From assembly GCA_964187785.1 (NCBI GenBank), contig OZ076409.1, positions 66,962,001 through 67,026,000 on the forward strand: 64,000 nucleotides of DNA, read 5' to 3'. The translations under genes and the position numbers were made by a program. The number at the start of each line of letters is the position of its first letter. The stretch's first letter is position 1. The notes beneath the pieces were generated by a model. That model saw nothing but the letters and a program-made list of their open reading frames with translations, was not told where the DNA came from and did no database searches. The stretch is from Amphiscolops sp. MND2022 (taxonomy: Eukaryota). Positions 2,222 to 64,000 of this stretch are shown here, piece by piece.

Positions 2222-2245
2222 GAATCCTGAAACAAAAATTCTGAA

Positions 2246-13300: not shown

Positions 13301-13870
13301 TTTTTTCTTCAGACTACAATCCTCACACTGATCGGTCCATTGTTTAGAAACAATCCTGAAACCACATAAGGCCAAGTCCGGCCGAGGCAAACGTAGTCCA
13401 AAGGTTCCCCCTTTCATTTTTTACTTTTCAAGGTAACTACAAAACCGGACGGGACTAAAAGAGTCCTCCCTTTCGATTTTTTTTCGGCTGTCGCAGGCTG
13501 CCGCCTGTGACGGCACGAAAATTACAACGACCTCAATCGGACAGGAAACAGCAACAGGTATCATCCCAATCTATTAAACTTAAATCGATAAGTGAAAACG
13601 TGAACCTTTTGTGTCAATGTTCCATTTTTTGCACAATTTTGTATTTGACAATGCTACTCATTTCATTTTACTTTATAAGGATTAGTCTGTTAAGGCTCAC
13701 AATCAAAGAATCCAAGCTGAATATTTTGATGTATAACAGTGCAATTATATACTCAAAGTAACTGAAGCTAGAATGTAAGCAAGTGTACGCTGTATCGGAA
13801 ACGAGTTCAAGTGGACGAAACTCCGATTCCGGAGATGTCACTTGAGCTCGTTATATCAGCCAATCAAATC

Positions 13871-14384
13871 GCTTCATTTGTAATACTAGTATAGTTTTCA
13901 TTTAGTAATGGCCGAATAAGGCCAATTGACTTAATATAGTTGCCTTTGATTAGTAATTTGGTCAAATGGCCGGTTCCAGCTATTTTGTGAAAAGTGATGT
14001 TGCGATACCAATTATGTTTGTAATTACCCAGTATTACTGTAATTGTGCTTCTTGTACTAAATAGTCGCCCTTGTGCAGTATTAGTTGCTAAATAAGCTAG
14101 ATTGGGAATTAATTGTCGGCTTAGGCCGCTTCATTTGTAATACTAGTATAGTTTTCATTTAGTAATGGCCGAATAAGGCCAATTGACTTAATATAGTTGC
14201 CTTTGATTAGTACTTTGGTCAAATGGCCGGTTCCAGCTATTTTGTGAAAAGTGATGTTGCGATACCAATTATGTTTGTAATTACCCAGTATTACTGTAAT
14301 TGTGCTTCTTGTACTAAATAATCGCCCTTGTGCAGTATTAGTTGCTAAATAAGCTAGATTGGGAATTAATTGTCGGCTTAGGCC
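13871..14384. repeat. Two-copy 257-bp tandem duplication inside the solo LTR
   Basis: Units 13871-14127 and 14128-14384; two substitutions seen. Confidence 0.95.
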
Positions 14385-44187: not shown

Positions 44188-44387
44188 NNNNNNNNNNNNN
44201 NNNNNNNNNNNNNNNNNNNNNNNNNNNNNNNNNNNNNNNNNNNNNNNNNNNNNNNNNNNNNNNNNNNNNNNNNNNNNNNNNNNNNNNNNNNNNNNNNNNN
44301 NNNNNNNNNNNNNNNNNNNNNNNNNNNNNNNNNNNNNNNNNNNNNNNNNNNNNNNNNNNNNNNNNNNNNNNNNNNNNNNNNNNNNNN
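44188..44387. other. Assembly gap (200 N)
   Basis: Direct observation. Confidence 1.
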
Positions 44388-44507
44388 TATTTAATGGTTA
44401 TTTGTGTTGATAGCCTCATTTGCATCTGCTGGAGATTTGTCTGAACTTTTGGTAATTAATTATGGCTTCAAACGTTTTTTTTAATGAAAAACAAATCTTT
44501 TTAGATT

Positions 44508-44645: not shown

Positions 44646-44987
44646 AGTTTTGACAATTGCCTTTGGAAAGCGTACTTTGATAATGTACTTTTGCTAGGGA
44701 TTGAATTTATCAATTTTTGCAATAAATAACTCCAATTCTCGATTGATATGGCCAGTTACCATCTATTGCATTGATCCTTTTTTCTCAGAACAATTAATTG
44801 CAGGTCCCGTTGCGTCGAAAACGCAGTTCTTATAATTTATGCATTTCACTTTTTCGAACGGTAATTTTAGTTTCAACTATTTTACCATTGAACGTGCTTC
44901 CATCTGAGTCTACTTCCAATTGGAAGAAGATAGAAATTTGAAGAAAACAAACAATTAAAGACTGGAGCATAATTTCGACATAGTTAC

Positions 44988-45701
44988 TGTAACGGCAACT
45001 GCCCATGTCAAAATTTTCGAAGCAAAAATTCGTTCAAATCTGACGTGGCACTCAAACATGCTCCAGACGAAAGACCTGTCAGAAAAGCAGAAAAAAATCA
45101 GAAATCGCCCCCCGCGAGAGACGACGAGAAGAGAAGACGTAGAAAGCAGTCCCTAGAACACGGTGATGTGCCCATCTTTGGCGTTTACACTACGTAGGTA
45201 ACAGAAACCGGTGTTCCAGATGCTCGCCTGAAGATCCTGCGGTGTCCGGTGCGGTGACGAGCGCTAGCGCTGGGAAGCCATGGTCGATTCGCTCCTGTTA
45301 AATAACTCGAACTTGTGATATTGTTATGTCTATTGTGCTTTCCTTGTTGTAGTAGATTGATATGCTCGAGAGCTGCCCATTTACATCTATGGTTACCCCT
45401 TTTTGATGTCGATTTTATCAGATTCTCCAATACTATGGCTCAACATCCTCCTGTTTTCAGTCCCTTTTTTAAAGGCTAATTGAGCAGTGGTCTTGAGACA
45501 TGCAAGATGCCCGTTACTTTTAGCAGTTACAGACTAGGACCAGGCCAGAGAGTTTCCAACAAGACGGTTCCCCCACCTTGGGACTGGCTCCTTCGGAGGG
45601 AAAATGAGCTAGGGCCGCGGAGATCTAAGTCCCGGATTATATTCGCTGTTCTAGTTCCTCCACTCTACGTTGCGGTTCAAGCGCCAGCGCTTATCGTTAC
45701 A
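44988..45701 (+). repeat. 5' LTR (714 bp)
   Basis: Matches 63167-63881 except GCAG-AAAAAAA-TCAG versus GCAG-ATCAGAAA-TCAG. Confidence 0.97.
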
Positions 45702-45716
45702 TAGAACCTCATTTTT

Positions 45717-45734
45717 TGGCGACCACAGAGGGAT
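45717..45734 (+). promoter_or_regulatory. Primer binding site (probably tRNA-Arg)
   Basis: TGGCGACCACAGAGGGAT, 15 nt downstream of the LTR end. Confidence 0.85.
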
Positions 45735-46909
45735 CGTCTTGGGAAGCTTTCCCTAGCGGTTTTTAAAAGATCTGGCCCCCTGGTATTCAGCGCCAAGCCC
45801 GTTTCGACTCTGGAAAAGGAGAGAGAAGCAGAGTTTTACCCTTTTTTAGTCGTGTGACATTCTACTGGAACTGGGAGAGGCGTTGAACCAGAGAAAACCC
45901 GAAAAAATCACGTTTTCAGGTGCGAAAATGGTATTTTTAGGTATTCTGGAAGGAAATCGATATTTTGTGTGATGTGTTGTGTGCCCATCAGAGGGTATCT
46001 TTTTGCAGGTGCTGAGGACCGTAGCACGTGGCTACGGGTGTTTAACAGGTTTTGCAAGCTATTTTCAGCCATTTTATGCCATGCAAGAAGGTAACTGGTG
46101 GATGGCTGACCATGAACCAGCGAGGCGAAGGGGAAGTCAAATTGTGTGTTGCCTACTTTCTACTCCCATTTCTCGTGGAGACGTCCTAGAGGTATGGTTT
46201 TTGGTGGACAGCAAGTGCAATTGCAGACGATGCTAATGGTCCAAACCGCGTGTCTCTATCTGGTCTGGATGTGGAGAAAAAGCGTGGTGAAGGTGCACCC
46301 CCTGTGACCGGACGCGTCGCTCAAATGGCTCATGGTCGGTGAAATTTTTGAAAATGCACCTTTTTCGACGGGGAATCGTTGGTGCAGGTCAGTAATGTTT
46401 TATTGTAGATGTAACGACACCCTACGAAGTGCTTTTCTGCAAAAAAGATAGCACTTGCGTGAAAAAACCCTGATTTTGCGTTTTTTCGTGTTTTTCGTGG
46501 TTTTGAGCACTTGTGCTCAGCGGAACCAGGAAAACTTCGTGAAAAGTGTTGTAAAAAGCAGCTGCAAGGCTCGAGAAAGCTAGTACGAGGCACAGAAGGC
46601 CGTAATTTTGCCTTTGGTTGTGATAAAAGTGCCGATCTAGCAACAGAAAATTGCAAAAAAATGGAATTTTGACCAAAAAGGCACCCAGAAACACAGGCGT
46701 ACACTTGTGTAGAAGTGTGAAAAAGCAGTGTACGGTGTTTTGTCAAGCGTAGTAAACCCACAGGACACTAACTGTAACTTTTACAGCGGATTCAGGCAGC
46801 CTGGGGCTGACACGGTGCAAAAAACCGGTAATTTAAGGTGCTTTTAGGCATAAAAAGTGCATTGTCTGAAAGTCTTGAGAGTGAAACTTAGTGGACCAGA
46901 GCGAGTCTG

Positions 46910-47720
46910 AACGCTCTTATTTTCTGTTGTCGCAATAAAAATAACGCATTGTGGTGAAAACCGCGTGCAAAAACTCCTTTTCAGTGTCGAGAAAAGTCGA
47001 TAAACCTAGAATTTCAGTTAGTTTCAGGAGTGTCCTAGCACACAATAAAAACCCCCTGGGCACTCTGTCTTTTTGTTAATCAGGAGCTTTCGTGCTCTCG
47101 TTTTCTGTTTCTATAGTAAAAACCACGCATTGTAGTGAAAACCGCATGCAAAAAATCCTTTCCAGTGCTGAGAAAAGTGGAAAAACGCACCGAATTTGAT
47201 CAATTTTCCACAAAACCGGACCGTCTCTGAGCTAGGGTCGGGTCATCGATTCCTGAACCCTAGCCAAAAAGTGGTTGCATTTTCGTAACCACCACAAAAA
47301 TTAACGTTGGTGCCGAAAATTTGGTGGGCGTATCGGTCACCAAAGTCGAGAAAAGCTCTCTGACGTTTCGACCTCAGAGAAGCGTAAAAGGACCGAAAAA
47401 ATCCAAAACTGCAGGACTGTCAGTGCCTTATACCTAACGGGCACAACCAATTGGGGGCTTATCCCAGTGCTACGGATAGTGGGGCAACACGTTGGTCCCA
47501 TTGTACCCGCCGTATCACTTTCTGAGGTGATCCTCTTCGTCAATTTGTGAAAAAAGTCGTCAAAAACAGTGTTTTTTCGTGTACAACGTACATAGTGGGT
47601 CGAAACCTCAAATAAGCGCTTGCGCTTCAATTCGACCATATCAGTGGCATTGTAGGTGCCCACTGGCATAGACTACTACGTTTGGTGCCAATCTGTGTGA
47701 TACTTGTCGAGAAAATAGGA
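46910..47720. repeat. ~180-bp phased degenerate repeats in the 2.7-kb 5' leader
   Basis: Clear pair at 46920/47101 (offset 181); G(T/C)(C/T)GAGAAAA at 46986, 47167, 47345, 47706. Confidence 0.75.
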
Positions 47721-48406
47721 AAAACGCGGCGCCCAAAAAGGTGTGCAAAAAGGTAGTTTTTTTTAAATTTTTCCAAGTAACCCGGGTACCTTAGCCGACG
47801 GGTGGGGCCCTATTGCAGCTCACCATCGTAACTTGTACTAGTTCCTACGTTGTTGCAGAGAATTTGAGCTGGGTAGCTTTTTCCAGTGGACCGCAATCTG
47901 GAAAAAGACGTGAAAAACAGTGTATCTCGGTACATAGTGGTACCGCACGTCTGTACCTAGGTGAAACTGTGTAGAAGGGGTGCAGCTCAATTCTGTGTTT
48001 ATTTTCGTAAACCTACGCGTACCTAAGATCTGCTGGTCAATTTTGGGCTTGATACAGCGCTTCCAGCGCACACACGAGCCTCTTGAGTGTTGTTGTGCGA
48101 TTTTTGGAAAATCCAGAAATTCTTTGAAATTCTTCCTGTGAGTGACCGGAGGCTTTTGGCCCCAAACTAGATCGATTTTCTGACCCAGTGTGCTTGTGGG
48201 AAAGTGCTGTGCGAATTTGAGCAGCCTACGAGCCTTAAAACGTATTTCGAGAAATTTGGGACGTTGCGAAACAGTCAAATTTCTTAAGTCCACACCGAGA
48301 CGAGCCTAGAGCTAACCGCGACTCGACAAATCCCACGTTCTTCGAGACTTCTATAAAGGCTACATCCGAATCGTTGACACCTGCTCTGCCATTGGCATCG
48401 TGTGTA

Positions 48407-51400
48407 ATGGTCCTACCAGGCCTGGAAAAGCTTGACATGAGTTCGCAGTCATGGGTGACCATAGGATCCACAATGGACGGTTCGCATTTTTCAGACGAAA
48501 TGTCTGACGAAGTCACTATCGAGCAACAACGCAAGGAGGAATTGGCCGCCATGGTCCCTCCCTCTGAGGGTTCCGTTGCATCTGGAAGCTCTCGTCGAAC
48601 CGAACAATGGGTCGAAGAAACCTGTCGTGAAAGAGCCAATGAAGCAGAAGAGGAGTGGCCCAACTCAAACGTGACCAACGAACTTGCAGCTGAGGAAGGG
48701 TGCTCTCGCGCACCCCTAGGGGAAAAGATGAGCTCCCGCCTACAGATCACGGTGGATGAGGATCTTACCTACTCGGAGAACACGAGTGGTGCGAGACCGC
48801 AAGGGTCTGGAGTCACTCGAAGTAACACTAGAGTTTGTGCCTATGGCAAACACAAGAAAGTGCGACCACCCATGATAAATGTAGGTGAACGTCAAGTTGA
48901 AGTGCCTCGTAAGAGGAGCGTGGCAGGTTCAGTGGCATCGTCCCAACGATCTTCGGTGTACAAAGCCGCAATATTGGAAGCCCAAGCCGAGACCCAACGT
49001 GCCTTAGCTGAACTGGCTAGCACTCGTGCTGGGTGCAATGACCAACATCGTGCCATCGCAGAAAATATGAGAACGTTGCAGACAACGATGCGAGAAGGAT
49101 TGCAGGTCAGTGATCAACTGCGAACCGCGCAGAACACGCAGAGTGCTCGCGTAGATGCACTAGGCTACAGAATGGGTGAGATGAATGACCTCTTGATGGC
49201 CCGTGAACTTCGTGTGGAAACCCAGATCAATGATTTGAGTAACCAAATGCACACTGTGCTCAATGCTATCAACATCATGAGGCGCGAAAGGTCCCTCCCA
49301 CGACAATCTGGTGCCACTGAAGGTGTGCCGATCGCGGATTCAATTAAGATTCCGGAATCATCGCACCAGGGTCAGGCAACAAAACCAGAAGTGGCGAGCG
49401 CATTGAAGCCTAGCACCTCCAAGTCGACGACGCCTGAAACCCGAACCAAGGATCCTGTACCCATCATGGCTGCTGTGGAGCGTAAACCTGCACGGGTGCA
49501 GGTAAGAGGGCCCCACGACTCCTCGTCGATGAGTCAAATAACATCCTCCGTAGTTCGAAGTGCCACCCGAGACCAAGGTGTGGACCCGATGTCACCTATC
49601 TATCTAGATACTTCTACCGAAGTTGATTTATCCTGTACTAAGGCCACACTAGGGTCCCAGACTGATGGAGCTGCGTATGCGACGGCCCCTACCATGGTTT
49701 CTGGAACGGACTCCCTGTATCTGACCGCCGACTGGACAGCCGAGGACGGAATGCCCTCGGGCGCTCCTTGCGCGAGTAGCACTCGCAGGAAAGAAGACGT
49801 GACGAACCTCTCAGTGCGAGCTACGCATGGCAGTGACGACGGTACTGATGAAGTGGCACCCAAGGAAGGAGAGGCTGAAGTCATCTCTCCCGAGCAATTG
49901 AGGTTCACTGCCGCCATCTCCAAAGCAATGTCCAAAGAGCTAGCACCGTTGCTTGCGGGACGTGACCTGGCTCAAACCAAACCCAGCGTGTATCGAGGCT
50001 CTAAGGACGGGTCTATTGATGGCTGGATCTTAGTGATGCAGCGATACTTGAAAAGAGTCCAAACCAAGATCTCGGCCGAAGATCGGGCCTGGAGCATTAT
50101 CGGTCACCTCGAGGGTGAGGCTCGCAACTACATCATCAACAAGGCTGAGTCTGAACGTGACACCCCCGAGAAGGTGTTTGAGTTGCTATCTAGCCGATTT
50201 GGCGCGGGAGGAAATCGTATGCAGGTGCGGCAGACCTTCCAAAGCCGCGTCCAACAAGAAAAAGGGGACTGGATGCAGTACTTAGACGCTTTAGAGGGTC
50301 TCAGGAGCCAAGGATTCCCGCAAGAAAGTATCATTACCAAACGTTATGAAATCTTGCAACGCTTCATGGAAGGTGTGCGAGATCCAGTGTTGAGGCGTGA
50401 ACTTGCCATAGTATACGCCTCGGAGACTTTTCTTACCGAACCCCCTACCGTGGAGTCCTTGCGATTTACCACACGTCAATTGCAACGAAATCGTCCCAGA
50501 CCCACCCAACCTCAACAACCCTATGATCCCAGATTAGCCATGAGGTCTAGACCTCATCCTTTCGCACCACTGCCGCCGAACAAGATGGTTATGCCGCAGG
50601 GCGTCCTGCCACCTCCGGCGCCACCCCAAAATGTCCCAGCTCCCGCTGTCCCAGCGCCCGCCCGAGCGCCGGTAGGTGCTTGTTTCCACTGTGGGCAAAA
50701 CGGACATTTTGCTCGCGAGTGCCCCAATCGTGACCAAGCCCGAAAACCAATGACTGCCTCCGAACCAGAGGGCGTAAAGGTGACCACGGAAGACACGACC
50801 GATGGTATCCTTGAAGGTCATCCGGGGATCTATCAATGCACGAGCTGTGGACTTTTCGATCAGGCGGAAGTGCAATGTGGTGAGCACTCCCATGCGCCGA
50901 AACCCAATGACGAGTTGGCCTACAATCGATGGGCTGAGGTCGAATCAGCTGGCATCGCCGCGCACACCGTACCTTTGGAAGATGACCGTGTGTTGATGCT
51001 ACATCCAGCGGAACCGCCTGCGTTCCACACTCCGATGACATTCACTTGTGGTGCTAAGCAAATTCAGACCTGCTTGGAACCCACGACGTTCGATCCGCAA
51101 GGACGGACGCTGATTTCAATTCACCTGTTGCTGGCAGCTGAGCAAATACGTAGGCCGACGCTAACTCTGGCGAAGCTATGGGTCGAATTGTCTATCCTCT
51201 ACAAACGAAACGAGTTGCCTCGACCGAAAGAATGGTACGCTCCGGGAGAGTCTGCGACTCTGACAACATATTCCCCAGTGCCAGTCTGCGCTTCAATGGA
51301 TGGAGTGGATATGAAATTCGAAGCCTGTGTGGTGGTGGATGTATTTCCCCCTGGCATTTGTCTGGGTCCCCAGGAGCTCAAATGCTATAACATCAATCAT

Positions 51401-54400
51401 CAGGAGCCCACCGGCGAAGCGCGTATAGATGAGCGTGCGTCGCTCGTGGTCTCTTTCGTGGTGCCTCATGCAGCACCTATTCCGCTGCGAGGACTGGTGG
51501 ACACTGGCTCGGGCGTCTCCATACTGACGTTTTCCGCCTTCAACAGAGTGGCAGCTCGAACTGGAACGGTACTTAAACCCTACCAAGTTGACCTGTACGC
51601 AGCCAACGGGAAGACAATAAAGACCTACGGCCTCGCAGAACACATCCATTTCCAGCTGGGAGGATACGAACTTGAAACGAACTTTGTGGTGGTAGATGAC
51701 GCAATGGGTGTGGAAGACTTCCTACTTGGCCGGAACTTTCTTCGCTCCTACCAGGTGTTAGTGGATCTAACATCTATGAAGATTGTGGTGCGAGCACCAG
51801 TGAAGCCTGTGTGGCATCATGCTCACGCACAGGTAGGTGACACTTCAATAGCTACTCCAGTCGTTTTGGACAGTGACTTGGTCCTGCAACCTTTCGAACG
51901 AGCGGTGGCTAGAGCCAAGCTCGTCACCAACACACTAGAGCCGCTGATTTTTCAAAGCGTAGCGCTCAATGCCTCTTTGTCTGACACTACGTTGCACAAT
52001 GTCGTCTTTTTAGAGGACAGCGTGGCCACTGTCAGTGAGACAGGAACACTCTTTGTGAGCCTGATAAATCTCACCAGCAACCCTCAACGCATGCGGTGTG
52101 GTGTACAACTGGGCACCGTAGTACCCATAACGGTAGTATACCAAGCAGTACCTCAATGTTTGGACTCTCCCACTACAACCCGCACAAAAACTGACGCCGA
52201 CGACAGTCGTGCAAATTTTGTTCATAAAATTTATAGTGAAGTGAATCTATCCACTGCTTCTGAGTTAACCTCTTCTTCAGAATTTGAGTTTTTGTCCTCT
52301 ACTGACCCTAGCGAGGCAGGACTATCGGAGCGCGAGATTCGCAAGCGAACGGACCCAGAGCTAATGGCTCCGATTCCTGGGCCGGAATCTCAGCTCAAGG
52401 CGGTCAAGGATTTATGGGGCGCTAGCGCCTGCGAGTCTCTCCGTAACCTCCTCGATGAATTCGATGAGCTATTCATGAAACACAAAGCGGACATCGGTCG
52501 GTGCACTATCGCTAAGCACACCGTGGAGGTGGAACCAGGGGCTGTACCGCATCGTGAAGGTGCTCGCCGGATGTCCCCTGAGAAGGCCGAACGTGCCAAT
52601 CAGGAGGTACGGAACCTCTTAGCTCTGGGAATGATACAGCCCTCGCTGTCCCCTTGGGCGAGCGGCATTGTAATGGTGAAAAAGAAAAACGGGGAGTTGC
52701 GCTTTTGCTGCGACTTCCGCCCGTTAAATGAGGTAACCATTAAGGATGCTTATCCCTTGCCCCGCATTGATGAAAGCCTGGCACGGCTAGGCAAGGCGAA
52801 GATCTATACCAGCATAGACCTTGCTTGGGCCTTTTGGCAAATTCCTGTGCGAAAGGCGGATCGCCACAAAACCGCTTTTGCTTGTGAACTAGGACTTTTT
52901 GAGTGGCGGCGAATGCCATTTGGTATGTGCAATGCATCTGCCACGTTTCAGCGGTCAATAGCGCGTGCGCTAAGGAATATTGTCAATCGTGAGGGCAGCA
53001 TGGTCATGGCCTACATTGATGATATCGTGATTGCCACAGAGACTGTGGAAGACCATATGGTACGCCTACGTGAAGTCTTTGAATGCCTCCGTGAAGCCGG
53101 TTTCAAAATGCGCGTGGCCAAATGCGATTTCATGAAATCGGAGATCAAGTATTTGGGACGAGTGGTTTCCGCAGAAGGAGTAAAGCCCGACCCGAAAGCC
53201 GTCGTCAAGTTGCGCGATTGGGAAATTCCCCGTAACAAGACGGAGATGCAGAGTTTCCTTGGATTCGCCAACTATTACCGCGAATTCATCCCTTGGCACG
53301 CTAAGCTGGTTGCACCCCTGCACGCCGTCACTGGACTGAATGCCACCTTCGCCTGGGGTCCTGAGCAACAAACCGCATTCAATGAGATCAAAAAAGCCCT
53401 AATCGAGGCAACTGCGCTCGCGCAGCCTGATTCCGAAGGAGAGTTTGTGTTGGACACTGACGCTAGTGCTGTCGCCATTTCTGGTATCCTGCACCAGTGG
53501 CAAGGTCCTCCGGGTGAACGACGCCTGAGACCGATAGTTTACGGTAGCAAGAAGCTCACCACCACACAAGCCAAATACGGAGCTCCCAAACTTGAAATGT
53601 TCGCCGCCTACTATTTCATAGTGAAAAACCACAGCTATCTATGTCCCCGGAAATTCACCCTGCGGGTGGACAACCAAGCTTTGTCCTGGTTGAAAACCTA
53701 CTCCACGGATCAAGCGCTAATCGGCCGATGGATTATGACCCTGGAGAAGTATCACTTTCGCGTGGAACACCGCCCGAGAACTCAACATCGAAACGCCGAT
53801 GGCTTGAGCAAACGAACCAACGAGTACCGATGCCGCGAGAAACAGCTTGCACAGCAGCCAGCTGCGGGCGAACGCTGGAATTTTCTTTCAGCTGACGAAT
53901 TTGATAAACTACCTGTTGCCCCATGGTTCGACCTTCAGGGTCGAGTCATCCCGAATCATCCCGAGCTACCTGCGCACCTGCAGAACTTGGAGCCTAAGGC
54001 TCCCAACCAATTGCTACGCGTGCTTCGCCGCACCAAACGAGCGAGCAGGAGGGACAGACAAGCAAAAGCATTCGCAGCCCCCTTGCCGCCTCCGCCTTCC
54101 CTTGCTCTGCAACCGCACGAGGATGCCTATCCAGACTACCCTGAGGACTGGATTGATGTGACTGATGAAGCACGCGAAGATTATCTATTACCGACGCATG
54201 CCGTAAATGTACCCTCACGTACCGTCTATGCCATTGCTGGGGCGAATCCTGTTGCGCTGCAGGGTACTCCCTCGGGTGTACGCGACTCAATTTTGGCTCT
54301 TAAAGACATCAACACTGAACTTCACGAACATGCTCACACCGTGCATGGTATCAAAGATTTGATTCTAGCCCAAAATCGTGATGTTCATGTGCTAGCACTC

Positions 54401-57400: not shown

Positions 57401-57817
57401 ATAGTGTTAGCATGCCCTGCTGACCTAAAGACCAACTCTGCCGCCCTGCGATATGTGCTGCGGGAGTGCGGCATAGAAGATGTATTTGCCTTACGACCTA
57501 AAGTGGGCGAGATTCTCACTATCCCGCCTGATGTGAACCCCAACCCTAACCAAAGTATTCACCTGTTAATAGTCCGTGCTAACCAGCGCGCACCGCTGCT
57601 GACAGATGACTACTTGCGTTGCATGACGTACTTGATACAGCGCCTGATAGATAAAGGATCCACACGGGTCCACTTACCCATTCTGGACCCCGAGAGACCG
57701 GCTTTCTCGTTGGTCAATCTGTACCATACTCTAACGAACATGTTCGAGGGTACTGGTATTCACGTGGTTTTGCATAGCCGCGTATATGTATCAATATTAA
57801 CTATAGGGCTGAAGTAG
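48407..57817 (+). CDS. gag-pol: Gag-Pol polyprotein (~3,136 aa from the first ATG) with a C-terminal extension ending in a macrodomain
   Basis: Capsid-like region ~49980-50460; CCHC CFHCGQNGHFAREC 50681-50722; protease LVDTGS (D at 51500); RT YIDD at 53012; RNase H LDTDAS ~53450; IN HHCC ~54620-54740 plus D,D,E (IIDHFSK, QSDNA, LVERQN); GPY/F-like WRGPHKV; AT-hook 56270-56296. Confidence 0.97.
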   Translation: MVLPGLEKLDMSSQSWVTIGSTMDGSHFSDEMSDEVTIEQQRKEELAAMVPPSEGSVASGSSRRTEQWVEETCRERANEAEEEWPNSNVTNELAAEEGCSRAPLGEKMSSRLQITVDEDLTYSENTSGARPQGSGVTRSNTRVCAYGKHKKVRPPMINVGERQVEVPRKRSVAGSVASSQRSSVYKAAILEAQAETQRALAELASTRAGCNDQHRAIAENMRTLQTTMREGLQVSDQLRTAQNTQSARVDALGYRMGEMNDLLMARELRVETQINDLSNQMHTVLNAINIMRRERSLPRQSGATEGVPIADSIKIPESSHQGQATKPEVASALKPSTSKSTTPETRTKDPVPIMAAVERKPARVQVRGPHDSSSMSQITSSVVRSATRDQGVDPMSPIYLDTSTEVDLSCTKATLGSQTDGAAYATAPTMVSGTDSLYLTADWTAEDGMPSGAPCASSTRRKEDVTNLSVRATHGSDDGTDEVAPKEGEAEVISPEQLRFTAAISKAMSKELAPLLAGRDLAQTKPSVYRGSKDGSIDGWILVMQRYLKRVQTKISAEDRAWSIIGHLEGEARNYIINKAESERDTPEKVFELLSSRFGAGGNRMQVRQTFQSRVQQEKGDWMQYLDALEGLRSQGFPQESIITKRYEILQRFMEGVRDPVLRRELAIVYASETFLTEPPTVESLRFTTRQLQRNRPRPTQPQQPYDPRLAMRSRPHPFAPLPPNKMVMPQGVLPPPAPPQNVPAPAVPAPARAPVGACFHCGQNGHFARECPNRDQARKPMTASEPEGVKVTTEDTTDGILEGHPGIYQCTSCGLFDQAEVQCGEHSHAPKPNDELAYNRWAEVESAGIAAHTVPLEDDRVLMLHPAEPPAFHTPMTFTCGAKQIQTCLEPTTFDPQGRTLISIHLLLAAEQIRRPTLTLAKLWVELSILYKRNELPRPKEWYAPGESATLTTYSPVPVCASMDGVDMKFEACVVVDVFPPGICLGPQELKCYNINHQEPTGEARIDERASLVVSFVVPHAAPIPLRGLVDTGSGVSILTFSAFNRVAARTGTVLKPYQVDLYAANGKTIKTYGLAEHIHFQLGGYELETNFVVVDDAMGVEDFLLGRNFLRSYQVLVDLTSMKIVVRAPVKPVWHHAHAQVGDTSIATPVVLDSDLVLQPFERAVARAKLVTNTLEPLIFQSVALNASLSDTTLHNVVFLEDSVATVSETGTLFVSLINLTSNPQRMRCGVQLGTVVPITVVYQAVPQCLDSPTTTRTKTDADDSRANFVHKIYSEVNLSTASELTSSSEFEFLSSTDPSEAGLSEREIRKRTDPELMAPIPGPESQLKAVKDLWGASACESLRNLLDEFDELFMKHKADIGRCTIAKHTVEVEPGAVPHREGARRMSPEKAERANQEVRNLLALGMIQPSLSPWASGIVMVKKKNGELRFCCDFRPLNEVTIKDAYPLPRIDESLARLGKAKIYTSIDLAWAFWQIPVRKADRHKTAFACELGLFEWRRMPFGMCNASATFQRSIARALRNIVNREGSMVMAYIDDIVIATETVEDHMVRLREVFECLREAGFKMRVAKCDFMKSEIKYLGRVVSAEGVKPDPKAVVKLRDWEIPRNKTEMQSFLGFANYYREFIPWHAKLVAPLHAVTGLNATFAWGPEQQTAFNEIKKALIEATALAQPDSEGEFVLDTDASAVAISGILHQWQGPPGERRLRPIVYGSKKLTTTQAKYGAPKLEMFAAYYFIVKNHSYLCPRKFTLRVDNQALSWLKTYSTDQALIGRWIMTLEKYHFRVEHRPRTQHRNADGLSKRTNEYRCREKQLAQQPAAGERWNFLSADEFDKLPVAPWFDLQGRVIPNHPELPAHLQNLEPKAPNQLLRVLRRTKRASRRDRQAKAFAAPLPPPPSLALQPHEDAYPDYPEDWIDVTDEAREDYLLPTHAVNVPSRTVYAIAGANPVALQGTPSGVRDSILALKDINTELHEHAHTVHGIKDLILAQNRDVHVLALKKLVLNEPIDHDVFPENVREFARNYYRQKKTLLFINKNGVLCVRYPPNQRPLHERPCMIVMPQLYQHEILFRAHDAMGHQGISKVVARIQERHTWPGIRRSVGRYVGQCLTCQQVRDKPGDVRFHLKNIQSGYFNELVQYDHLKICPSDSNNTGILVIIDHFSKFAEAVPCSHHDYDAVTTSRLLLQKWFARHGTPTRMQSDNAPNLTAEVSNEFLKAAHVTKVTSTASHPRTQGLVERQNRTLLTLLRVFCSRRMRDWDQCLDEVIGAYNSTRHATTGFSPYMLTRGVEKAIPLTFLYPEFAAKSFESHEAYVDHVLARQQEIHDLVRRNTHQAQLRQKLKYDRAIQARAYQVGELVWVFCRYVPQKGSPKLMRAWRGPHKVVQIFQDGRVYVLDTGQKVHFERLKPHHSGPLELATAHTDSGEVVVLMDPEPERSVDVVDDDKSLSSYKPEQLLSEASDASLPSRRRHWMDTRLRTKLRAGGSRPHYQQFDYSTSGTDDELSDAMLPIPPVDEDLVEPAAPPTALDQSISPARVLPQLFSDHERVRSPSPQISSSEKETSLPGTSASLLTNPSLTNFLSNYPIWPTAPPIPLKSASNDSNVQPDLPEAPEISPGAGTAPSFKRGRGRPPKAQKKRLIRAKARTRKKETPRNAETETAIQAETEAPRTAETLTEASATALRYQLRSKRQPRYKCGTCGLRDCVCLLAVNENRRVPIGARGVPPEERENLVYRLTVRAEKTYSAVERSGDHPVDTILEKLSLPGVAKAPCPRFKEWTSDGKGLEFTLSTVLPPVPSNIAFGPFNFEREPVQMVRCITADLLCDKYGVQVEPGGVYSPAPHWWLLVTAPRVEAMVEPLNLLSCLESLRTLTTVDLILCFHIIDWYRGKMKFAWWLELIITCFATYPRIRLLDEWTHTFEIPLFPKAALGTLDVWVKAGSDNRAMPRSVWQDLAAVQGRTPHVCLPSDNGPGREIVYPGALYPNSAEHVSYDESDFLQAEGDIVLACPADLKTNSAALRYVLRECGIEDVFALRPKVGEILTIPPDVNPNPNQSIHLLIVRANQRAPLLTDDYLRCMTYLIQRLIDKGSTRVHLPILDPERPAFSLVNLYHTLTNMFEGTGIHVVLHSRVYVSILTIGLK
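57356..57817 (+). other. TARG1/OARD1 (Poa1p)-like macrodomain at the Pol C-terminus
   Basis: VSYDESDFL..DIVLACPADLK..CGIEDVFALRPKVGEILTI..IHLLIVR..KGSTRVHLPIL..MFEGTGIHVVLH aligns by eye with the OARD1-type pattern (YVKGDLF..LAHCISED..GEVAVL..IYYLITK..GVTDLSMPRIGCG..VFEATDIKITVY). Confidence 0.75.
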
Positions 57818-58112
57818 CCTTATCATTTTAGTTGTCCCCATTTTTCCTTTGCCCTCAGTTCTTGTAACAATTCTTGTAACAACCTTGGAAGAGTCTTGAA
57901 ATGCTCTCGAGATGTTAATTTGTCATGTTGTTCACTCAAAGGTTTTGTTCTAGTTCGTTAGTTAGTTAGAGTTAAATTTTAAGTTTGTAGTGGCCCCCTT
58001 ACGGAGCCGATTTTGCCTGGCTGCAATTGAAGGACGAACCGACCCACGGCTCGTTCCAGAGAGAACTTGTCCCTGTAAGTCTAACAGTGGTCCTTTTTAG
58101 ACCTATGCATTA

Positions 58113-61100
58113 ATGGCCCATTGCCCAAACAATTCAGCGCCTGCAACAGGGTCTAATAGTGCAAGGCCCCAGGAATCTGCGCGAGCGCAGAGGGTCAATC
58201 AGGCCCAATATGTCGAAGAAAGGCTGCGGGACGGTCTTTCGCCAGTAGCCGTAGCTGGGGTGGCTGCCCTACTGACCCAGCTTGAATCGATGCAAATGCT
58301 GCCAAATGCATCTTTGTCAATCACTACGGAGGTGGCAGGCTATCGTCGCACCTTGACGTGCACCAACAATGCCTGGGATGGGCACGACCTGACTCACCAG
58401 TTCTTGGACGAAAGATCAATCGCAGTGCATGGCCCCAGCCAGGGCACCAGATTCGAACAAGAAGCATCACTGCGTATGATCCCCGTCAACGTCCCATCGC
58501 TGCCTTCCATTTCGGCACCAAATCCAGTGCAGACGACGCCGCATTCTAGCTCGATTGCTTATGGGGCACCATATGGAACCCGGGCAACGACGACGCAAAA
58601 CATTACCAATCAACCAGCCTCAAGTCGGGAGCCCTCGGGGTCCCAACTGCCATCAGTGCCTAATCTAAATCTGATCGGACGGAGTGCCAGCGAGCAAGCG
58701 GTGATTGTGGCCCTGCAGGCTGTCGCCAACTACCCCAACTCCTCTGACTTCGTTCGTGCAGTTGAGCAAAGGATTCCCGGATTGGCACATTACTTGCAAG
58801 CCGCAGCTCAGCCCTCGGGCTGTGTCACCCCACCCACCACCCTAGCCGAAGCTGTGTCTATGGAAGCAGAAACTACGGCTGGACCAAGCACCGGCGCCAT
58901 AACCTATCCCCGTGAGGAAACTGGACGGAAGCGACTTACTGAGGAAAACATCGTCGCTACACGCCATGATTCCGTGACCGACAGTCCGACCAGTCGTCCC
59001 CCTCCGGACAAGCGAGCAGATGTACCCCACCAGTCGCAAATGAAAAGTGTAGTGGTCGTGAGGCCTCCATATCGCGTCGGCCACCTAGGCGTAGGCGCGC
59101 CTCAAATGTCCCTGGAAGAGGCCATCAACCGCTACGGCAGTGTGGATGCGAATCCTGAAACGAATCCTGTGCCCTTGGGCACAGGCTCTGCCAACATGTC
59201 CCTGGAGGTGCCCGAGACAGTCGAAGAGACCAGTCCTCCCGCCTTTCTTCCCCCGTCCGATGATGTATCCGGCTCCGTGGTAACTAGCGATAGCAAACGC
59301 ATCTGGATGGCGGCAGAGTGTTTGCACCCGAACACATGTGCGATTAGAAGGAGAGCACCGCCGTCGGACGCCGAGCAAAGAGAGGTGAGCAGAATCACCA
59401 TTGCGGCTCAAATAACTCGATCGCTACGTGCCCGTGATGCGGACCTAAGTGAGCAAGCCTGGGAACAGCGTGCTCGAGAGCAACTGCCCGCCACACCCAA
59501 CAACTACATGGCTCGCCTGCAGCATGACCTCACCGAGCAATTTCCCGCTAGGTACATATTGCACGAAGGAGAAACCTGGGAAGCAAACGCCCGCTACGCT
59601 CGCAATATCAGGTCAATGAAGCCCCTCTTGAAAGCAGCTCTGCAGCGTGCGCGCTATTGTGTGGCAGTAGATTCGACACTCAAGAGTGATCTGCCCATCG
59701 ATAACCTTCTGCCCGATGTGCTGGTGTTAACAATGCCACTCTCCCGCTTCGCCGAGGTCGCAGAGATGGTCGCGGTTATGTACGACCCAAACCTGAGAGG
59801 GTCCCTAAGAGAGCCGCCCCCGCGACGTGTAGTCTCCACCAACTTGATCGACCACATGGCTTGTGAAGGACTGCTACACAACCTGGATGCCCTCATGGCA
59901 GATACCCGTAGACCTGGGAATGTGGCGACCTTAGTAAACGTGGTTGCAGACGCAATGGAGCGTGCAGCAGGGATCCTTCGGGGTCGTCTGGGAGCGCTCG
60001 CGCTCTTCACATCCCCGCCGGGATTCATGTATTGGCAACGAAGCTTGCAGCAATTTGTGTACATCTTGTCTGAGGTATGTAAGGCGCGCCGAATCGAGTT
60101 TGCTATTTGTGCGCCAAACCTCCGGGTTGATCGCGGAGACCTACGCCCCGATGCATTGTCATACCCCGCCTTCTTTGCTGCCGTATCAAGAGTGCTAATC
60201 ACTGTGGAACGCTCGGGAAATGCACAACTGACTATCGACGACGCCGTACTGTTCGACCATGGAATGTGTATGGGGCGAATGGCCTTCGACTTGGACGGGA
60301 ATCGCGTCATGCGAGCATCTAACATGAGTGAGCGAGAGGCCGTTCGACGCTACAACTGGTTGGTGCGGAAGGACAAAGAAATTCCCGTACGAGCAGAGCT
60401 GGCAGAGCTCGTGAAGGAAATTGAAACCTGGCCTGCCACACGCACGGTCGAAAGGACCATTCCCCAAATTCGGTTTGCCGCGGGAATAGAGCCTGTCAAG
60501 TTGCCCGTGGGCATGAGGTACGTCGTGGCTATAGAGGCGACTAACTTGAAGACTGAAGTAGATGCCGCCGGAATAACGTATGCCGAATGGTATCAGTCCA
60601 GATTCGTGGACAGGACCTTGGCCGAGGTAGCTCAAGAGCTTAACTGTCCCTTGGAAGCCTTTTGTACCAGTCTCGGACTAGGCTGGAACATTGACGTAAT
60701 AGCCTCTGAGTACTTGCTCACCAATGTGCAGACTGACAAATTGTTGGAAACCATCGGCGAAACTACTGTAGGAGAGATGTTAGCGCTCGCGCTAACCATG
60801 GGCCCGACGAAGTTTGTGGCAGGTCCCCTGGCTATGTTAGTCGAGTTGGTAGTATCCAGTGATCTAGTCACCTTTTACAGCTACCTGATCCTCGCGCAGG
60901 GACAGCTACGCAGCCTAACTCGATGGGGCCACCTCCTAAATTCCAAGGACCAGCAAGATTATGTCACCCAGCTGGAACGCATGCGTGCGTCCCTCCAACA
61001 TTGGTTGTATTCCACCCTAGTGTTCGCCTCTGGCTTGTTCGTAGGCGTGGATCAATCGCAACCCCTCCACCATTCCGAGCGTCAACTCCCTGCGGAAACG

Positions 61101-61298
61101 GCGGGATTCCCCATGCCTCAGCAAATCGCCGATTTGACTCTGGCCGAAGTGGAGGACTTCGTGGCCGTTATGGCTTCCGTCCTGGCTCCAATCTTCGGTG
61201 CGGTCGGTGTGTGCCGGTATCCCACCAAACCATTGGCGAGAGCAGTACAGTGCATATGGTCTCCTCCTGCACCTATCTCCAAGGACGCCCCCCACTGA
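58113..61298 (+). CDS. Extra ORF2 in the env position (1061 aa): low-complexity N-half, SGNH/GDSL-esterase-like domain (~59652-60200), hydrophobic C-terminal helices
   Basis: Long intact ORF between pol and the 3' LTR; SGNH-like blocks CVAVDSTLK, LTMPLSRF, RVVSTNLIDH, LFTSPPG, EVCKARRIEF, GDLRPDALSY. Confidence 0.8.
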   Translation: MAHCPNNSAPATGSNSARPQESARAQRVNQAQYVEERLRDGLSPVAVAGVAALLTQLESMQMLPNASLSITTEVAGYRRTLTCTNNAWDGHDLTHQFLDERSIAVHGPSQGTRFEQEASLRMIPVNVPSLPSISAPNPVQTTPHSSSIAYGAPYGTRATTTQNITNQPASSREPSGSQLPSVPNLNLIGRSASEQAVIVALQAVANYPNSSDFVRAVEQRIPGLAHYLQAAAQPSGCVTPPTTLAEAVSMEAETTAGPSTGAITYPREETGRKRLTEENIVATRHDSVTDSPTSRPPPDKRADVPHQSQMKSVVVVRPPYRVGHLGVGAPQMSLEEAINRYGSVDANPETNPVPLGTGSANMSLEVPETVEETSPPAFLPPSDDVSGSVVTSDSKRIWMAAECLHPNTCAIRRRAPPSDAEQREVSRITIAAQITRSLRARDADLSEQAWEQRAREQLPATPNNYMARLQHDLTEQFPARYILHEGETWEANARYARNIRSMKPLLKAALQRARYCVAVDSTLKSDLPIDNLLPDVLVLTMPLSRFAEVAEMVAVMYDPNLRGSLREPPPRRVVSTNLIDHMACEGLLHNLDALMADTRRPGNVATLVNVVADAMERAAGILRGRLGALALFTSPPGFMYWQRSLQQFVYILSEVCKARRIEFAICAPNLRVDRGDLRPDALSYPAFFAAVSRVLITVERSGNAQLTIDDAVLFDHGMCMGRMAFDLDGNRVMRASNMSEREAVRRYNWLVRKDKEIPVRAELAELVKEIETWPATRTVERTIPQIRFAAGIEPVKLPVGMRYVVAIEATNLKTEVDAAGITYAEWYQSRFVDRTLAEVAQELNCPLEAFCTSLGLGWNIDVIASEYLLTNVQTDKLLETIGETTVGEMLALALTMGPTKFVAGPLAMLVELVVSSDLVTFYSYLILAQGQLRSLTRWGHLLNSKDQQDYVTQLERMRASLQHWLYSTLVFASGLFVGVDQSQPLHHSERQLPAETAGFPMPQQIADLTLAEVEDFVAVMASVLAPIFGAVGVCRYPTKPLARAVQCIWSPPAPISKDAPH

Positions 61299-62392
61299 CC
61301 TATCAGCGAATCGTGCAGGCTGTATTGAGTGGCGAGATGCCGCATGGGTACACCACCTTGAAGTCGGAGAAACAGCTGGAAGAGAATTTGATGGGTCTAT
61401 TGCGTGCCCGCACACGAAAGGCGTGCCCTTTGCCACGAGAATACGGCCCAGTCAACTGGTACTCCGCGCCTCTCAGCCTGAATGGAGTCCCCTTTAGATT
61501 CCCTTGGTCGCAGGAGTTCATACGCAAGGTGATCCGTGCCAGCACTAGTGCTGGTCCACCAATAGATCCCCTGTACGCCTTCAAATGCATCACCTTCCCA
61601 AATCACTATTGGAAGGAGCCACTGGGATGGCCCAGAGCAAAACCCGTTGGTCGCGCCCCTGAAGCTTTCAATCGACAAATCCAGTATATGGAATTGGCTC
61701 AGATCCCAAACTGGATAGAAGGAGCAGCTCAGACTCGTCAGAGGAATCTGCAAAGTCGCGTAACTCCGTTCCCTAGAAAAGCTGCCTGGCGACCGCAGGC
61801 CAAGATGACAATGTCAGGGGATATGTCCATCGTCCAACACGATGAGATCAATTCCGTGCTAGGCCCCGAAGCCCGCGCAGAGTGGGAAGGACATTGCTTG
61901 GAGCTGGAGATTGCCAGCTTCCCAAAATGGAAGCGAGCTTGCGAGCTCTGGAGTCAGCCTGGCTGGGTCTCCAAACGAATATCCTTGGCCGTGGAGAGTA
62001 GAGCTGAACTCGAGAGACAACAGGCGTTCGCGCCTGCCATGCTGGCACCCACAATGGCCATGTCACTAAGTCAGCCCATCGACCGGCCCGTGACTCTGGA
62101 TTTGCCCACTCATATTCTGCAGCCAGAGCCTGTGAGTCCACCATCGACACAGGCCAGTCCTCAGTCATCGCAACCCCAAACCGGAGAACACGCCGCTGAA
62201 CTGACCCCTAACACTATCCTGGTGCCGCCGATCGCCGATTTAACGCTCCCAGAAGACCTATCAGACTCGGAAACAGTAGTTACTGTGGTTCCTGCTCAAC
62301 GTAGAGCGTCAGTTGCGTCGGAAGATGCCAGCAATCCAGGAACTCCCGATGATGCCATAAAGAATCGAGCTCGACGCAGCTCAGCCCAATAA
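60923..62392 (+). CDS. Extra ORF3, in the -1 frame overlapping the ORF2 end; probably the C-terminal part of one ORF2/3 protein
   Basis: 489-codon open frame; protein-like sequence from ~61256 (MVSSCTYLQGRPPLTYQRIVQAVLSGEMP). Confidence 0.65.
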   Translation: MGPPPKFQGPARLCHPAGTHACVPPTLVVFHPSVRLWLVRRRGSIATPPPFRASTPCGNGGIPHASANRRFDSGRSGGLRGRYGFRPGSNLRCGRCVPVSHQTIGESSTVHMVSSCTYLQGRPPLTYQRIVQAVLSGEMPHGYTTLKSEKQLEENLMGLLRARTRKACPLPREYGPVNWYSAPLSLNGVPFRFPWSQEFIRKVIRASTSAGPPIDPLYAFKCITFPNHYWKEPLGWPRAKPVGRAPEAFNRQIQYMELAQIPNWIEGAAQTRQRNLQSRVTPFPRKAAWRPQAKMTMSGDMSIVQHDEINSVLGPEARAEWEGHCLELEIASFPKWKRACELWSQPGWVSKRISLAVESRAELERQQAFAPAMLAPTMAMSLSQPIDRPVTLDLPTHILQPEPVSPPSTQASPQSSQPQTGEHAAELTPNTILVPPIADLTLPEDLSDSETVVTVVPAQRRASVASEDASNPGTPDDAIKNRARRSSAQ

Positions 62393-63127
62393 ACCCTGCC
62401 GCCAATGGGAGCGTTCGCGCTCCCTATAGACTCTAAACTCTGCCGAAACTGTGCCTTCAAACTTATCGCTTTAACCGGTGCTACCCGTACATGGTGCAAT
62501 TTTTTGTTCATAGTTATTACTTAGTTACTGTACTGTTAGTAATGCGCTGGGTGTACGGCCAATAGAGTGCGCCTGCCCCAGCTGCTTCGCCTACGAAAGT
62601 AAAAAAGAATCTATTACCAAAGAAAAACTGTTATTTCTGTTGCGCACCGTTCGCGGTGTTTTTGAGTTGCCATAGTCAAGAAAAAGTCTTAGCCTTTTAG
62701 TTACGATTTTTGCCGTTTTTCCTTGTGTTTTGGTGTTCAAGCATCTTCTATCGACTGTCTAAGGAGTAGCCGAAACGGCGCCCTCCCAAAACAAGTTTTA
62801 CGTTGTCCGAAATTGACCGAAAACTGTAAATGTCAAGTTGCATAAAAAAGGAGATTGTAGCTGACCTTGGTCGCAAAAGATTTTTTTAGCGAAAACTGCT
62901 TGCCCAAACGAGTTTTAACCGACTGAAAACCTTAGCTCTCGAGCTGGTGCTAAAACCTCGTTTGCATTTTTGTACAAATACCCAGGCAGTAAAGTTTTCC
63001 TTGAAAAAAAACCGCGAAATTTGACAAAAATAGTTGCTGAAAAACAAGGACTCGTCCTTGTCCCCTGTGGTGTGGATGATGGTTCCCAGCAGTCACTGCG
63101 ATGCCGTTTCCAGACGAGGCCAGATGC

Positions 63128-63166
63128 CGCTTGCCAGGGACGACAAGCCAGAAGCCCGGGGAGTGA
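63128..63166 (+). promoter_or_regulatory. Pre-PPT hairpin and polypurine tract
   Basis: GCTTGCCAGGGACGACAAGC..GCCCGGGGAGTGA immediately before the 3' LTR; homologous to 40214-40249. Confidence 0.75.
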
Positions 63167-63881
63167 TGTAACGGCAACTGCCCATGTCAAAATTTTCGAA
63201 GCAAAAATTCGTTCAAATCTGACGTGGCACTCAAACATGCTCCAGACGAAAGACCTGTCAGAAAAGCAGATCAGAAATCAGAAATCGCCCCCCGCGAGAG
63301 ACGACGAGAAGAGAAGACGTAGAAAGCAGTCCCTAGAACACGGTGATGTGCCCATCTTTGGCGTTTACACTACGTAGGTAACAGAAACCGGTGTTCCAGA
63401 TGCTCGCCTGAAGATCCTGCGGTGTCCGGTGCGGTGACGAGCGCTAGCGCTGGGAAGCCATGGTCGATTCGCTCCTGTTAAATAACTCGAACTTGTGATA
63501 TTGTTATGTCTATTGTGCTTTCCTTGTTGTAGTAGATTGATATGCTCGAGAGCTGCCCATTTACATCTATGGTTACCCCTTTTTGATGTCGATTTTATCA
63601 GATTCTCCAATACTATGGCTCAACATCCTCCTGTTTTCAGTCCCTTTTTTAAAGGCTAATTGAGCAGTGGTCTTGAGACATGCAAGATGCCCGTTACTTT
63701 TAGCAGTTACAGACTAGGACCAGGCCAGAGAGTTTCCAACAAGACGGTTCCCCCACCTTGGGACTGGCTCCTTCGGAGGGAAAATGAGCTAGGGCCGCGG
63801 AGATCTAAGTCCCGGATTATATTCGCTGTTCTAGTTCCTCCACTCTACGTTGCGGTTCAAGCGCCAGCGCTTATCGTTACA
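63167..63881 (+). repeat. 3' LTR (715 bp)
   Basis: Near-identical to 44988-45701. Confidence 0.97.
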
Positions 63882-64000
63882 TAGTGTTTATTTTTTTTTT
63901 CTAAAACATACAAAAGCTGTGATTTAATTGTGTCATAGCAACAAAAAAGTTTTTTGTTGCCGCGTTATGTCCTTTTCTTCCAATAACTCCGAAAAGCGCA

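Follow-up and report, generated by a model that had tools for sequence, protein, structure and literature searches.

The element and its target-site duplications

We analysed a 64,000-nt stretch of contig OZ076409.1 from Amphiscolops sp. MND2022 (positions 66,962,001 to 67,026,000), referred to here as the window; element coordinates are window positions on the + strand. Positions 44988-63881 (+) hold an element of 18,894 bp which, by its anatomy and its nearest solved reverse transcriptase (RT), we assign to Ty3/Gypsy (Metaviridae). The copy belongs to family A of what is probably an autonomous, recently amplified Ty3/Gypsy lineage of at least four families (A-D), with an integrase that cuts the target strands 3 bp apart. 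The 3-bp duplication is the best diagnostic of this lineage and was absent from an initial annotation of the element, as was the 15-16 nt spacing of the primer site from the LTR. An ordinary 6-kb Gypsy family of the same genome served as a control. The features that define the ends of the element are as follows.

44985..44987 (+): left target-site triplet TAC, with one mismatch to the right triplet TAG; the rule in the lineage is a 3-bp duplication
44988..45701 (+): 5' long terminal repeat (LTR), 714 bp, TGTAAC...GTTACA
45702..45716 (+): 15-nt spacer from the LTR end to the primer-binding site; it measures 15-16 nt throughout families A-D and is absent (0 nt) from the control Gypsy
45717..45736 (+): putative primer-binding site, beginning TGGCGACCAC; role assigned from its position and TGG start
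45737..48406 (+): long leader, within which 93 nt are repeated (46913/47094); parts conserved in families C and D
63150..63166 (+): short polypurine-tract-like stretch before the 3' LTR; CCCGGGGAG core common to families A-D
63167..63881 (+): 3' LTR, 715 bp
63882..63884 (+): right target-site triplet TAG

LTR elements and retroviruses duplicate 4-6 bp of target DNA, a length that reflects the geometry of the integrase-DNA complex. We compared the flanks of 44 LTR pairs (18 from family A, 12 from B, 2 from C and 12 from D). An exact 3-bp duplication was present in 39 of the 44 and a duplication of 4-7 bp in none, so that the 4-6 bp typical of Ty3/Gypsy, a common trait but not a taxonomic criterion, was not found. 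By chance, 34 of 1,892 non-cognate flank pairs match at 3 bp (1.8%). Two more copies of a long subfamily of B also carried 3 bp (2/2), giving 41 of 46 resolved pairs; a third long-B copy, whose left end did not resolve, was excluded. The five misses are one family-D pair and four family-A copies, among them the window copy (TAC/TAG). The family-D pair is mis-paired, because the primer spacer follows its right LTR, and mismatched triplets were found in 0 of the 25 correctly paired B, C and D copies. A longer duplication cannot be obtained by shifting the LTR ends, because the primer spacer and the purine tract fix their inner sides.

The control Gypsy has one open reading frame (ORF) of 1,764-1,795 codons, LTRs of about 200 bp and a primer site abutting the LTR. 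Its eight copies are flanked by 5 bp, exact in 7 and with one mismatch in 1. A 3-bp repair imposed by the host was therefore rejected, since the control leaves 5 bp in the same genome. Taken from the flanks, a 3-bp stagger at strand transfer is well supported. A decayed remnant of the AT-rich 6-kb family from which the control was drawn, unrelated to the element, lies at window 42050-44190.

The inner side of the 5' LTR is also unusual when set beside the control. In families A-D, the putative primer site starts with TGG and lies 15-16 nt inside the LTR end. From this position we infer an extension of 15-16 nt on the U5 cDNA end, which integrase would need to remove.

Gag-Pol, copies and families

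The coding region begins with ORF1, whose features up to the integrase are listed below.

48239..57817 (+): ORF1, single-frame Gag-Pol, 3,192 codons; first ATG at 48407
50012..50407 (+): capsid-like Gag core; weak PNMA match (E 0.2), 55-74% identity across families
50678..50728 (+): zinc knuckle CX2CX4HX4C; PF00098, E 4e-6
50972..51412 (+): conserved pre-protease domain without DTG; as a lead only, possibly a degenerate retropepsin
51422..51808 (+): aspartic protease with DTG
51806..52168 (+): intervening segment between protease and RT, delimited by its conservation
52676..53752 (+): reverse transcriptase with RNase H; Ty3 is the closest solved relative
54584..55648 (+): integrase with HHCC, DDE core and the GPY/F-type motif WRGPH at 55535-55543

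A leader of about 2.7 kb (45702-48406, from the LTR to the first ATG) precedes the Gag-Pol frame, as initially annotated. ORF1 measures 3,192 codons from stop to stop and 3,136 from the first ATG, with no internal stop. The annotated stop-free Gag-Pol of about 3,140 aa without a frameshift thus holds, although not as a special trait, because the ordinary 6-kb Gypsy of this genome has a single Gag-Pol frame too. Pfam placed CCHC, protease, RT, RNase H and integrase within ORF1 in Gypsy order, with the Gag CCHC upstream of protease-RT-RNase H-integrase (PR-RT-RH-IN) and RNase H directly after RT without a tether domain. In a comparison with the PDB, which holds few references for such proteins, RT-RH-IN matched Ty3 best (E 1e-102), with caulimovirus (3e-47) and foamy virus (8e-39) following. 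The GPY/F-type integrase motif WRGPH, with His in place of Tyr/Phe, is invariant in 5/5 sequences, and the direct LTRs with TG..CA ends are a trait of Metaviridae. The segment at 51806-52168 may be dUTPase-like.

Of the tandem protease described initially, one DTG protease is present and the second, upstream copy is a lead only. The pre-protease domain matched the profile of the active protease with a probability of 10% (5 sequences), and the same comparison with deeper profiles scored 13.2, within the range of shuffles (up to 17.9). It has no DTG or DSG, with E-P/S-T at the presumed place, and nothing matched it in the PDB or Pfam. An ESM Atlas lead connects it to retropepsins (0.87-0.89), and a degenerate retropepsin is named here as that lead and nothing firmer.

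To sample the family, the genome was searched with the LTR and the best 40 of 2,242 candidates were scored, all of them 98-100% identical. Seventeen paired copies were retrieved, which with the window copy make 18 family-A copies; the sample leans young because the copies are the best LTR hits. Sixteen of the 18 measure 18,879-18,903 bp and the remaining two carry extra inserts (20.3 and 22.6 kb in all). These inserts, of about 1.4 and 3.7 kb, lie before ORF1. Fifteen of the 17 copies are within 0.7% of one reference copy. The two LTRs of each copy differ by 0-3 substitutions, 26 summed over the 18 copies or about 0.2%. In the window copy they differ by 2 mismatches and 1 gap column, clustered at a single spot (714/715 bp), and are thus as nearly identical as first described; we interpret this copy as a recent insertion. 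No solo LTR was seen among the 30 best LTR hits (0/30), each of which adjoins the primer spacer or the purine tract.

Selection was assessed from distinct single-base changes relative to one copy, many of which come from two more divergent copies. The ratio pN/pS was 0.14-0.49 across all 14 segments; the macrodomain repeats gave 0.30-0.38 and ORF2 0.24-0.48. The per-domain check of selection and architecture proposed with the initial annotation gave values below 0.5 in 14/14 segments and a layout kept in the copies.

Homologues of the integrase tail, at identities down to 38%, map back to the same genome as families B, C and D. Each is high-copy with at least 150 matches, as is the long subfamily of B, and LTRs of 711-774 bp enclose interiors of 13-18 kb across the families. 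Among the sampled copies, family D is 19.2 kb with an ORF2 of 1,491 codons and family C is 15.8 kb without ORF2. Short B is 14.8-15.4 kb without ORF2, while long B, about 19.2 kb, has an ORF2 of 1,441-1,442 codons that is 28% identical to that of family A; the ORF1 of long B is 83-92% identical to short B over Pol. The modules are conserved in frame across families down to 28-40% identity. Eighteen family-A copies and the three other families have one layout in common, which together with the pN/pS values bears out the initial view of a Ty3/Gypsy lineage that is giant and young and keeps its accessory modules.

An RT-RH-IN tree of elements from this genome, with long B left out and the control family as root, gave (B,(D,(A,C))) with starred support. 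ORF2 is present in A, D and long B and in neither C nor short B. By this tree and this distribution, ORF2 is old in the lineage and has been lost at least twice. Relatives of ORF2 at 25-30% identity lie on short contigs, which suggests other hosts. One such distant piece (positions 3-815) is on a contig of 816 bp assigned to a bacterial genome bin and is probably eukaryotic carry-over. For the integrase, no relatives with DNA context were found in metagenome, viral or prokaryote collections.

Two further observations concern exchange and arrangement of the families. A leader block of 1.4 kb is 91% identical between families C and A (window 46900-48300), although most of the LTR sequence of the two families is not alignable; recombination between families is the likely source of the shared block. 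Family-C matches recur every ~14 kb at G000:C1:34054611-34111291, and in one case the LTR of a family-D element leads into another interior, possibly reflecting tandem arrays that share LTRs.

Integrase tail and ORF2

About 730 aa of ORF1 follow the GPY/F region of the integrase, as annotated, and ORF2 lies beyond, in the env position.

56267..56293 (+): AT-hook-like motif KRGRGRPPK; RGRP repeats in the same place in families B, C and D
56483..56515 (+): cluster of four cysteines, CxxCxxxxCxC, kept in families A-D
56771..57172 (+): macrodomain-like repeat, the first of two and degenerate; scores 25.3, where 30 shuffles reach no more than 17.0
57356..57781 (+): TARG1/OARD1-type macrodomain with its catalytic loop replaced
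57835..57858 (+): pyrimidine tract ending in CAG, right after the ORF1 stop; may serve as the splice acceptor of an ORF2 mRNA
58101..62392 (+): ORF2, in this copy split by one frame break into two frames (58101-61298 and 60863-62392), the break lying where they overlap; intact relatives have about 1,430 codons
59571..60227 (+): domain of ORF2 with an SGNH fold, retaining the Ser and carrying Arg at the block-V His position

Both the AT-hook and the macrodomain of the initial annotation were recovered in the integrase tail, the former as the AT-hook-like motif KRGRGRPPK and the latter as a TARG1-type fold. The structural model of this region matched TARG1 best (Foldseek E 4e-8; VIA Z 14.6-15.5, root-mean-square deviation (rmsd) 2.5-3.0 over ~134 residues), as did the sequence profile (E 8e-4), and its fold is closest to the TARG1 and DarG macrodomains. 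In the domain before it, the elements follow one another as in the macrodomain, and the two align over 100 columns with a score of 25.3, against no more than 17.0 in 30 shuffles, at a probability of 15%. Because of the shared order and a score beyond the shuffles, the two likely form a tandem pair.

The catalytic positions of this domain are altered. DPERP aligns to the GCGLD loop of TARG1, each of its positions conserved in 24-28 of 29 rows, and Arg occupies the position of the TARG1 catalytic Lys in 28 of 30 rows. We presume catalytic roles in TARG1 for this Lys and for the Asp with its GCGLD loop. The macrodomain thus seems to lack the TARG1 catalytic residues. Some insect Gypsy polyproteins carry annotated TARG1-like domains, and for this reason the macrodomain by itself may not be new.

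The roughly 1,400 codons first annotated in the env position are present, but not as further separate ORFs. Three separate ORFs were rejected, since 58101-61298 and 60863-62392 together correspond to a single frame of 1,430-1,431 codons in 10 of the 17 other family-A copies. In the window copy the two overlapping frames measure 1,065 and 509 codons and are set apart by one frame-breaking indel, which does not lie beside a homopolymer run and is possibly a sequencing error. Because of this indel, the description of the element as intact was wrong.

The initially annotated SGNH-like ORF corresponds to an SGNH fold within ORF2. It occupies residues 21-239 of the model, with a best VIA Z of 10.2 (rmsd 3.7, 178 aligned). 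The 50 VIA matches listed are SGNH/GDSL hydrolases or entries that we take to be SGNH-fold, among them the OSK domain of Oskar at Z 7.8. The ESM Atlas gave no usable match for ORF2, and the helical part, searched within the larger model, had no known fold among the matches listed. In the Asp-Ser of block I, D is kept in 33 of 34 rows and S in 32 of 34, and an NxxDH motif near the Ser is almost invariant. At the block-V His position, set by the motif and not by superposition, Arg occurs in 42 of 49 rows and His in at most 1; block V (DxxH) is presumably the catalytic His motif of SGNH. The SGNH domain therefore seems to be without its catalytic His.

Fusion-protein folds were absent among the matches listed, where model residues ~240-860 were barely tested and are partly of low confidence. 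A hydrophobic 19-mer (KD 2.28) occurs in the ORF2 of family A only, and no hydrophobic segment above KD 1.9 is common to the four ORF2 proteins. The pyrimidine tract after the ORF1 stop is found in both A and D. By its pN/pS values and distribution, ORF2 is an accessory ORF under selection yet repeatedly dropped by successful subfamilies.

Elsewhere in the window, an assembly gap of about 200 N lies at ~44190-44390, some 600 bp left of the element. Three consecutive frames at 1268-5088 (317, 379 and 602 codons) resemble a LINE-like ORF1, endonuclease and RT with frameshifts, named by eye only. A 257-bp unit is present in two near-identical tandem copies at 13870-14384.

Mechanism, rival explanations and known systems

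With Ty3/Gypsy the element shares TG..CA LTRs, the layout of primer-binding site and polypurine tract, CCHC, the PR-RT-RH-IN order and a GPY/F-type motif. It differs in its 3 bp instead of 4-6, in a primer site 15-16 nt inside, in a length of 15-19 kb, in the macrodomain-bearing integrase tail and in the SGNH ORF2. Troyka and the Kuafuorterviruses are one group of LTR elements. The GPY/F motif is a hallmark of Ty3/Gypsy integrases, and Troyka duplicates 3 bp where other LTR retrotransposons duplicate 4-6 (PMC12440569). Troyka resembles the present lineage in this duplication and in having mostly one Gag-Pol frame. However, Troyka has CG..CG ends, a CX2CX8-10HX4C knuckle, no GPY/F, LTRs of 100-400 bp and an interior of 1.5-7.7 kb (PMC12440569), whereas we found TG..CA in all 44 pairs, CX2CX4HX4C in A, B1 and D, a GPY/F-type motif, LTRs of 711-774 bp and interiors of 13-18 kb. 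Troyka membership, suggested by the 3-bp duplication, was rejected on these five features. The lineage shares one trait with Troyka and appears to work like Gypsy.

We propose that an RNA of ~18 kb would be translated as one polyprotein and cleaved by the DTG protease. Priming by a tRNA 15-16 nt inside would leave an unusually long U5 cDNA extension, which integrase would shorten to the CA end. A stagger of 3 bp at strand transfer, followed by gap repair, would then produce the 3-bp duplication. The 730-aa integrase tail, with its AT-hook, Cys cluster and two macrodomain folds, could tether the complex to chromatin or a host factor, at the place where chromoviruses carry a chromodomain; we somewhat favour such a binding or tethering module over an enzyme. 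ORF2 would be translated from a spliced RNA into an accessory protein other than an envelope, in which a pseudo-esterase SGNH domain would bind RNA or lipid. We give an even chance to this reading, under which ORF2 is dispensable in cis and may be obtained in trans. The balance tips slightly towards an undescribed, clade-level giant lineage marked by a 3-bp stagger independent of Troyka, 15-16 nt end processing, a duplicated pseudo-macrodomain tether and possibly other hosts. As an independent lineage, it may have the shortest stagger of TG..CA LTR elements.

Several observations weigh against this picture of an autonomous, 3-bp-cutting lineage and its modules. Mismatched triplets in 4 of the 18 family-A copies are far above expectation from an LTR divergence of 0.2%. 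No empty site was found for the window copy, its left flank having no full match elsewhere, and for this reason the stagger is deduced from flanks alone. The composition of the target sites is skewed no more than mildly, towards A/T at positions 3-4 counted from the centre. A priming tRNA was not found, as none of the six scanned among 12 near-matches was a tRNA (0/6). ORF1 is open in 5 of 18 family-A copies and both ORF1 and ORF2 frames in 2 of 18. The structural models are of moderate confidence, that of ORF1 residues 2751-3192 being built on 36 sequences (mean pLDDT 62) and that of ORF2 residues 471-1330, from a natural copy, on 68 (pLDDT 64). With the ORF2 model, Foldseek returned no match at E<=0.001 in the PDB or viral models. 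Finally, the catalytic residues are mapped from alignments and from presumed residue roles.

The 3-bp duplication itself can be read in other ways. Integrase might make an ordinary stagger of 4-5 bp and the duplication be trimmed to 3 bp in repair, perhaps along with removal of the U5 flap; the long primer spacer and short duplication do co-occur in all four families, and 4 of the 18 A copies have imperfect junctions. Trimming is nevertheless improbable in our view, since 41 of 46 resolved pairs have exactly 3 bp and no pair has 4 or more, and host repair leaves 5 bp at the control family. A Troyka relative, or an integrase derived from Troyka, would account for both the 3 bp and the single Gag-Pol frame (PMC12440569), but is contradicted by the TG..CA ends, CX2CX4HX4C, the GPY/F-type motif, the 715-bp LTRs and the 17.5-kb interior, and we give it very little weight. 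Least credible of all, and close to negligible, is an origin of the extra ORFs by nested insertion or mis-assembly, a doubt raised with the initial annotation. The 200-N gap ~600 bp left of the element and the two copies with extra inserts (20.3 and 22.6 kb) would fit it; against this, 16 of 18 copies agree in their frames and measure 18,879-18,903 bp, the modules stay in frame and conserved between families even where identity falls to 28-40%, and 17 further full copies and three more families have the same layout.

Two other alternatives concern function and novelty, and both strike us as unlikely, more so than the readings we propose. RNA-virus macrodomains erase or sequester host ADP-ribose signals, and the accessory modules could be active counter-defence or transfer factors, the macrodomains acting on ADP-ribose in the same way and ORF2 being a working esterase that would serve to cross membranes or to spread between cells. 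Consistent with this, the folds match TARG1/DarG and SGNH, ORF2 occupies the env position, and the Ser and nearby NxxDH are almost invariant, so that another His could serve; the ORF3 esterases of bdelloid Vesta elements keep their catalytic residues, in the sections of PMC5408684 available to us. Against activity stand the replacement of the TARG1 glycine loop and Asp position by DPERP, the Arg at the SGNH His position, the youth and abundance of the subfamilies without ORF2 (C and short B), and the lack of a hydrophobic segment above KD 1.9 in common among the four ORF2 proteins. Alternatively, the family, its architecture and its 3-bp duplication may already be catalogued in Repbase, Dfam or a genome repeat library and be re-found here, since families with at least 150 matches each would be collected by any genome repeat annotation. 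A 2025 paper based on Repbase nonetheless keeps 3 bp unique to Troyka among LTR elements (PMC12440569), and the protein matches had no descriptive names. A search of the openly accessible literature, in which most papers were judged by title and the start of the abstract, returned no TG..CA Gypsy with a 3-bp duplication and no Gypsy with a post-integrase macrodomain. In the parts available of PMC11673190 (Kuafuorterviruses), PMC6338049, PMC7290377, PMC6238403 and bioRxiv 2021.11.30.470311, this element is not described.

Precedents exist for separate elements of the architecture. Burro/GYPSM1, a planarian giant Gypsy of >30 kb, carries BIR, ankyrin, MATH and BCL2-like domains and an in-frame env homology, according to the accessible portion of a review (PMC6431247). 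It is similar in its giant size and in one huge polyprotein with accessory domains, and differs in those very modules, none of which Pfam finds here; the words macrodomain, SGNH, AT-hook and TSD do not appear in that portion. Vesta LTR elements of bdelloid rotifers have a GDSL/SGNH ORF3 of ~1.3 kb with intact catalytic residues (PMC5408684, same sections). As in Vesta, an SGNH domain lies in the env position and is gained or lost between families; here, in contrast to what those sections describe, it is one domain of a ~1,430-aa protein with Arg at the His position. For macrodomain capture by retroelements, a precedent exists in the macro ORFs that fish endogenous retroviruses carry, as far as the available text of PMC4977317 goes. 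The macrodomain of the present lineage shares its fold with TARG1/OARD1 and DarG. Unlike these and the fish macro ORFs, it is fused after the integrase, is apparently tandem and has its catalytic loop replaced.

A second, independent 3-bp lineage with TG..CA ends would offer a comparison for which integrase features set the stagger, and it weakens 3 bp as a marker of Troyka only. Structural LTR finders usually require a duplication of 4-6 bp. Families with hundreds of 15-19 kb copies are therefore open to mis-annotation by such finders, which would overlook copies in other hosts, if these exist, or place their ends wrongly. The lineage is, moreover, a further example of LTR genomes of great length, and of selection on an accessory ORF that successful subfamilies have nonetheless lost repeatedly.

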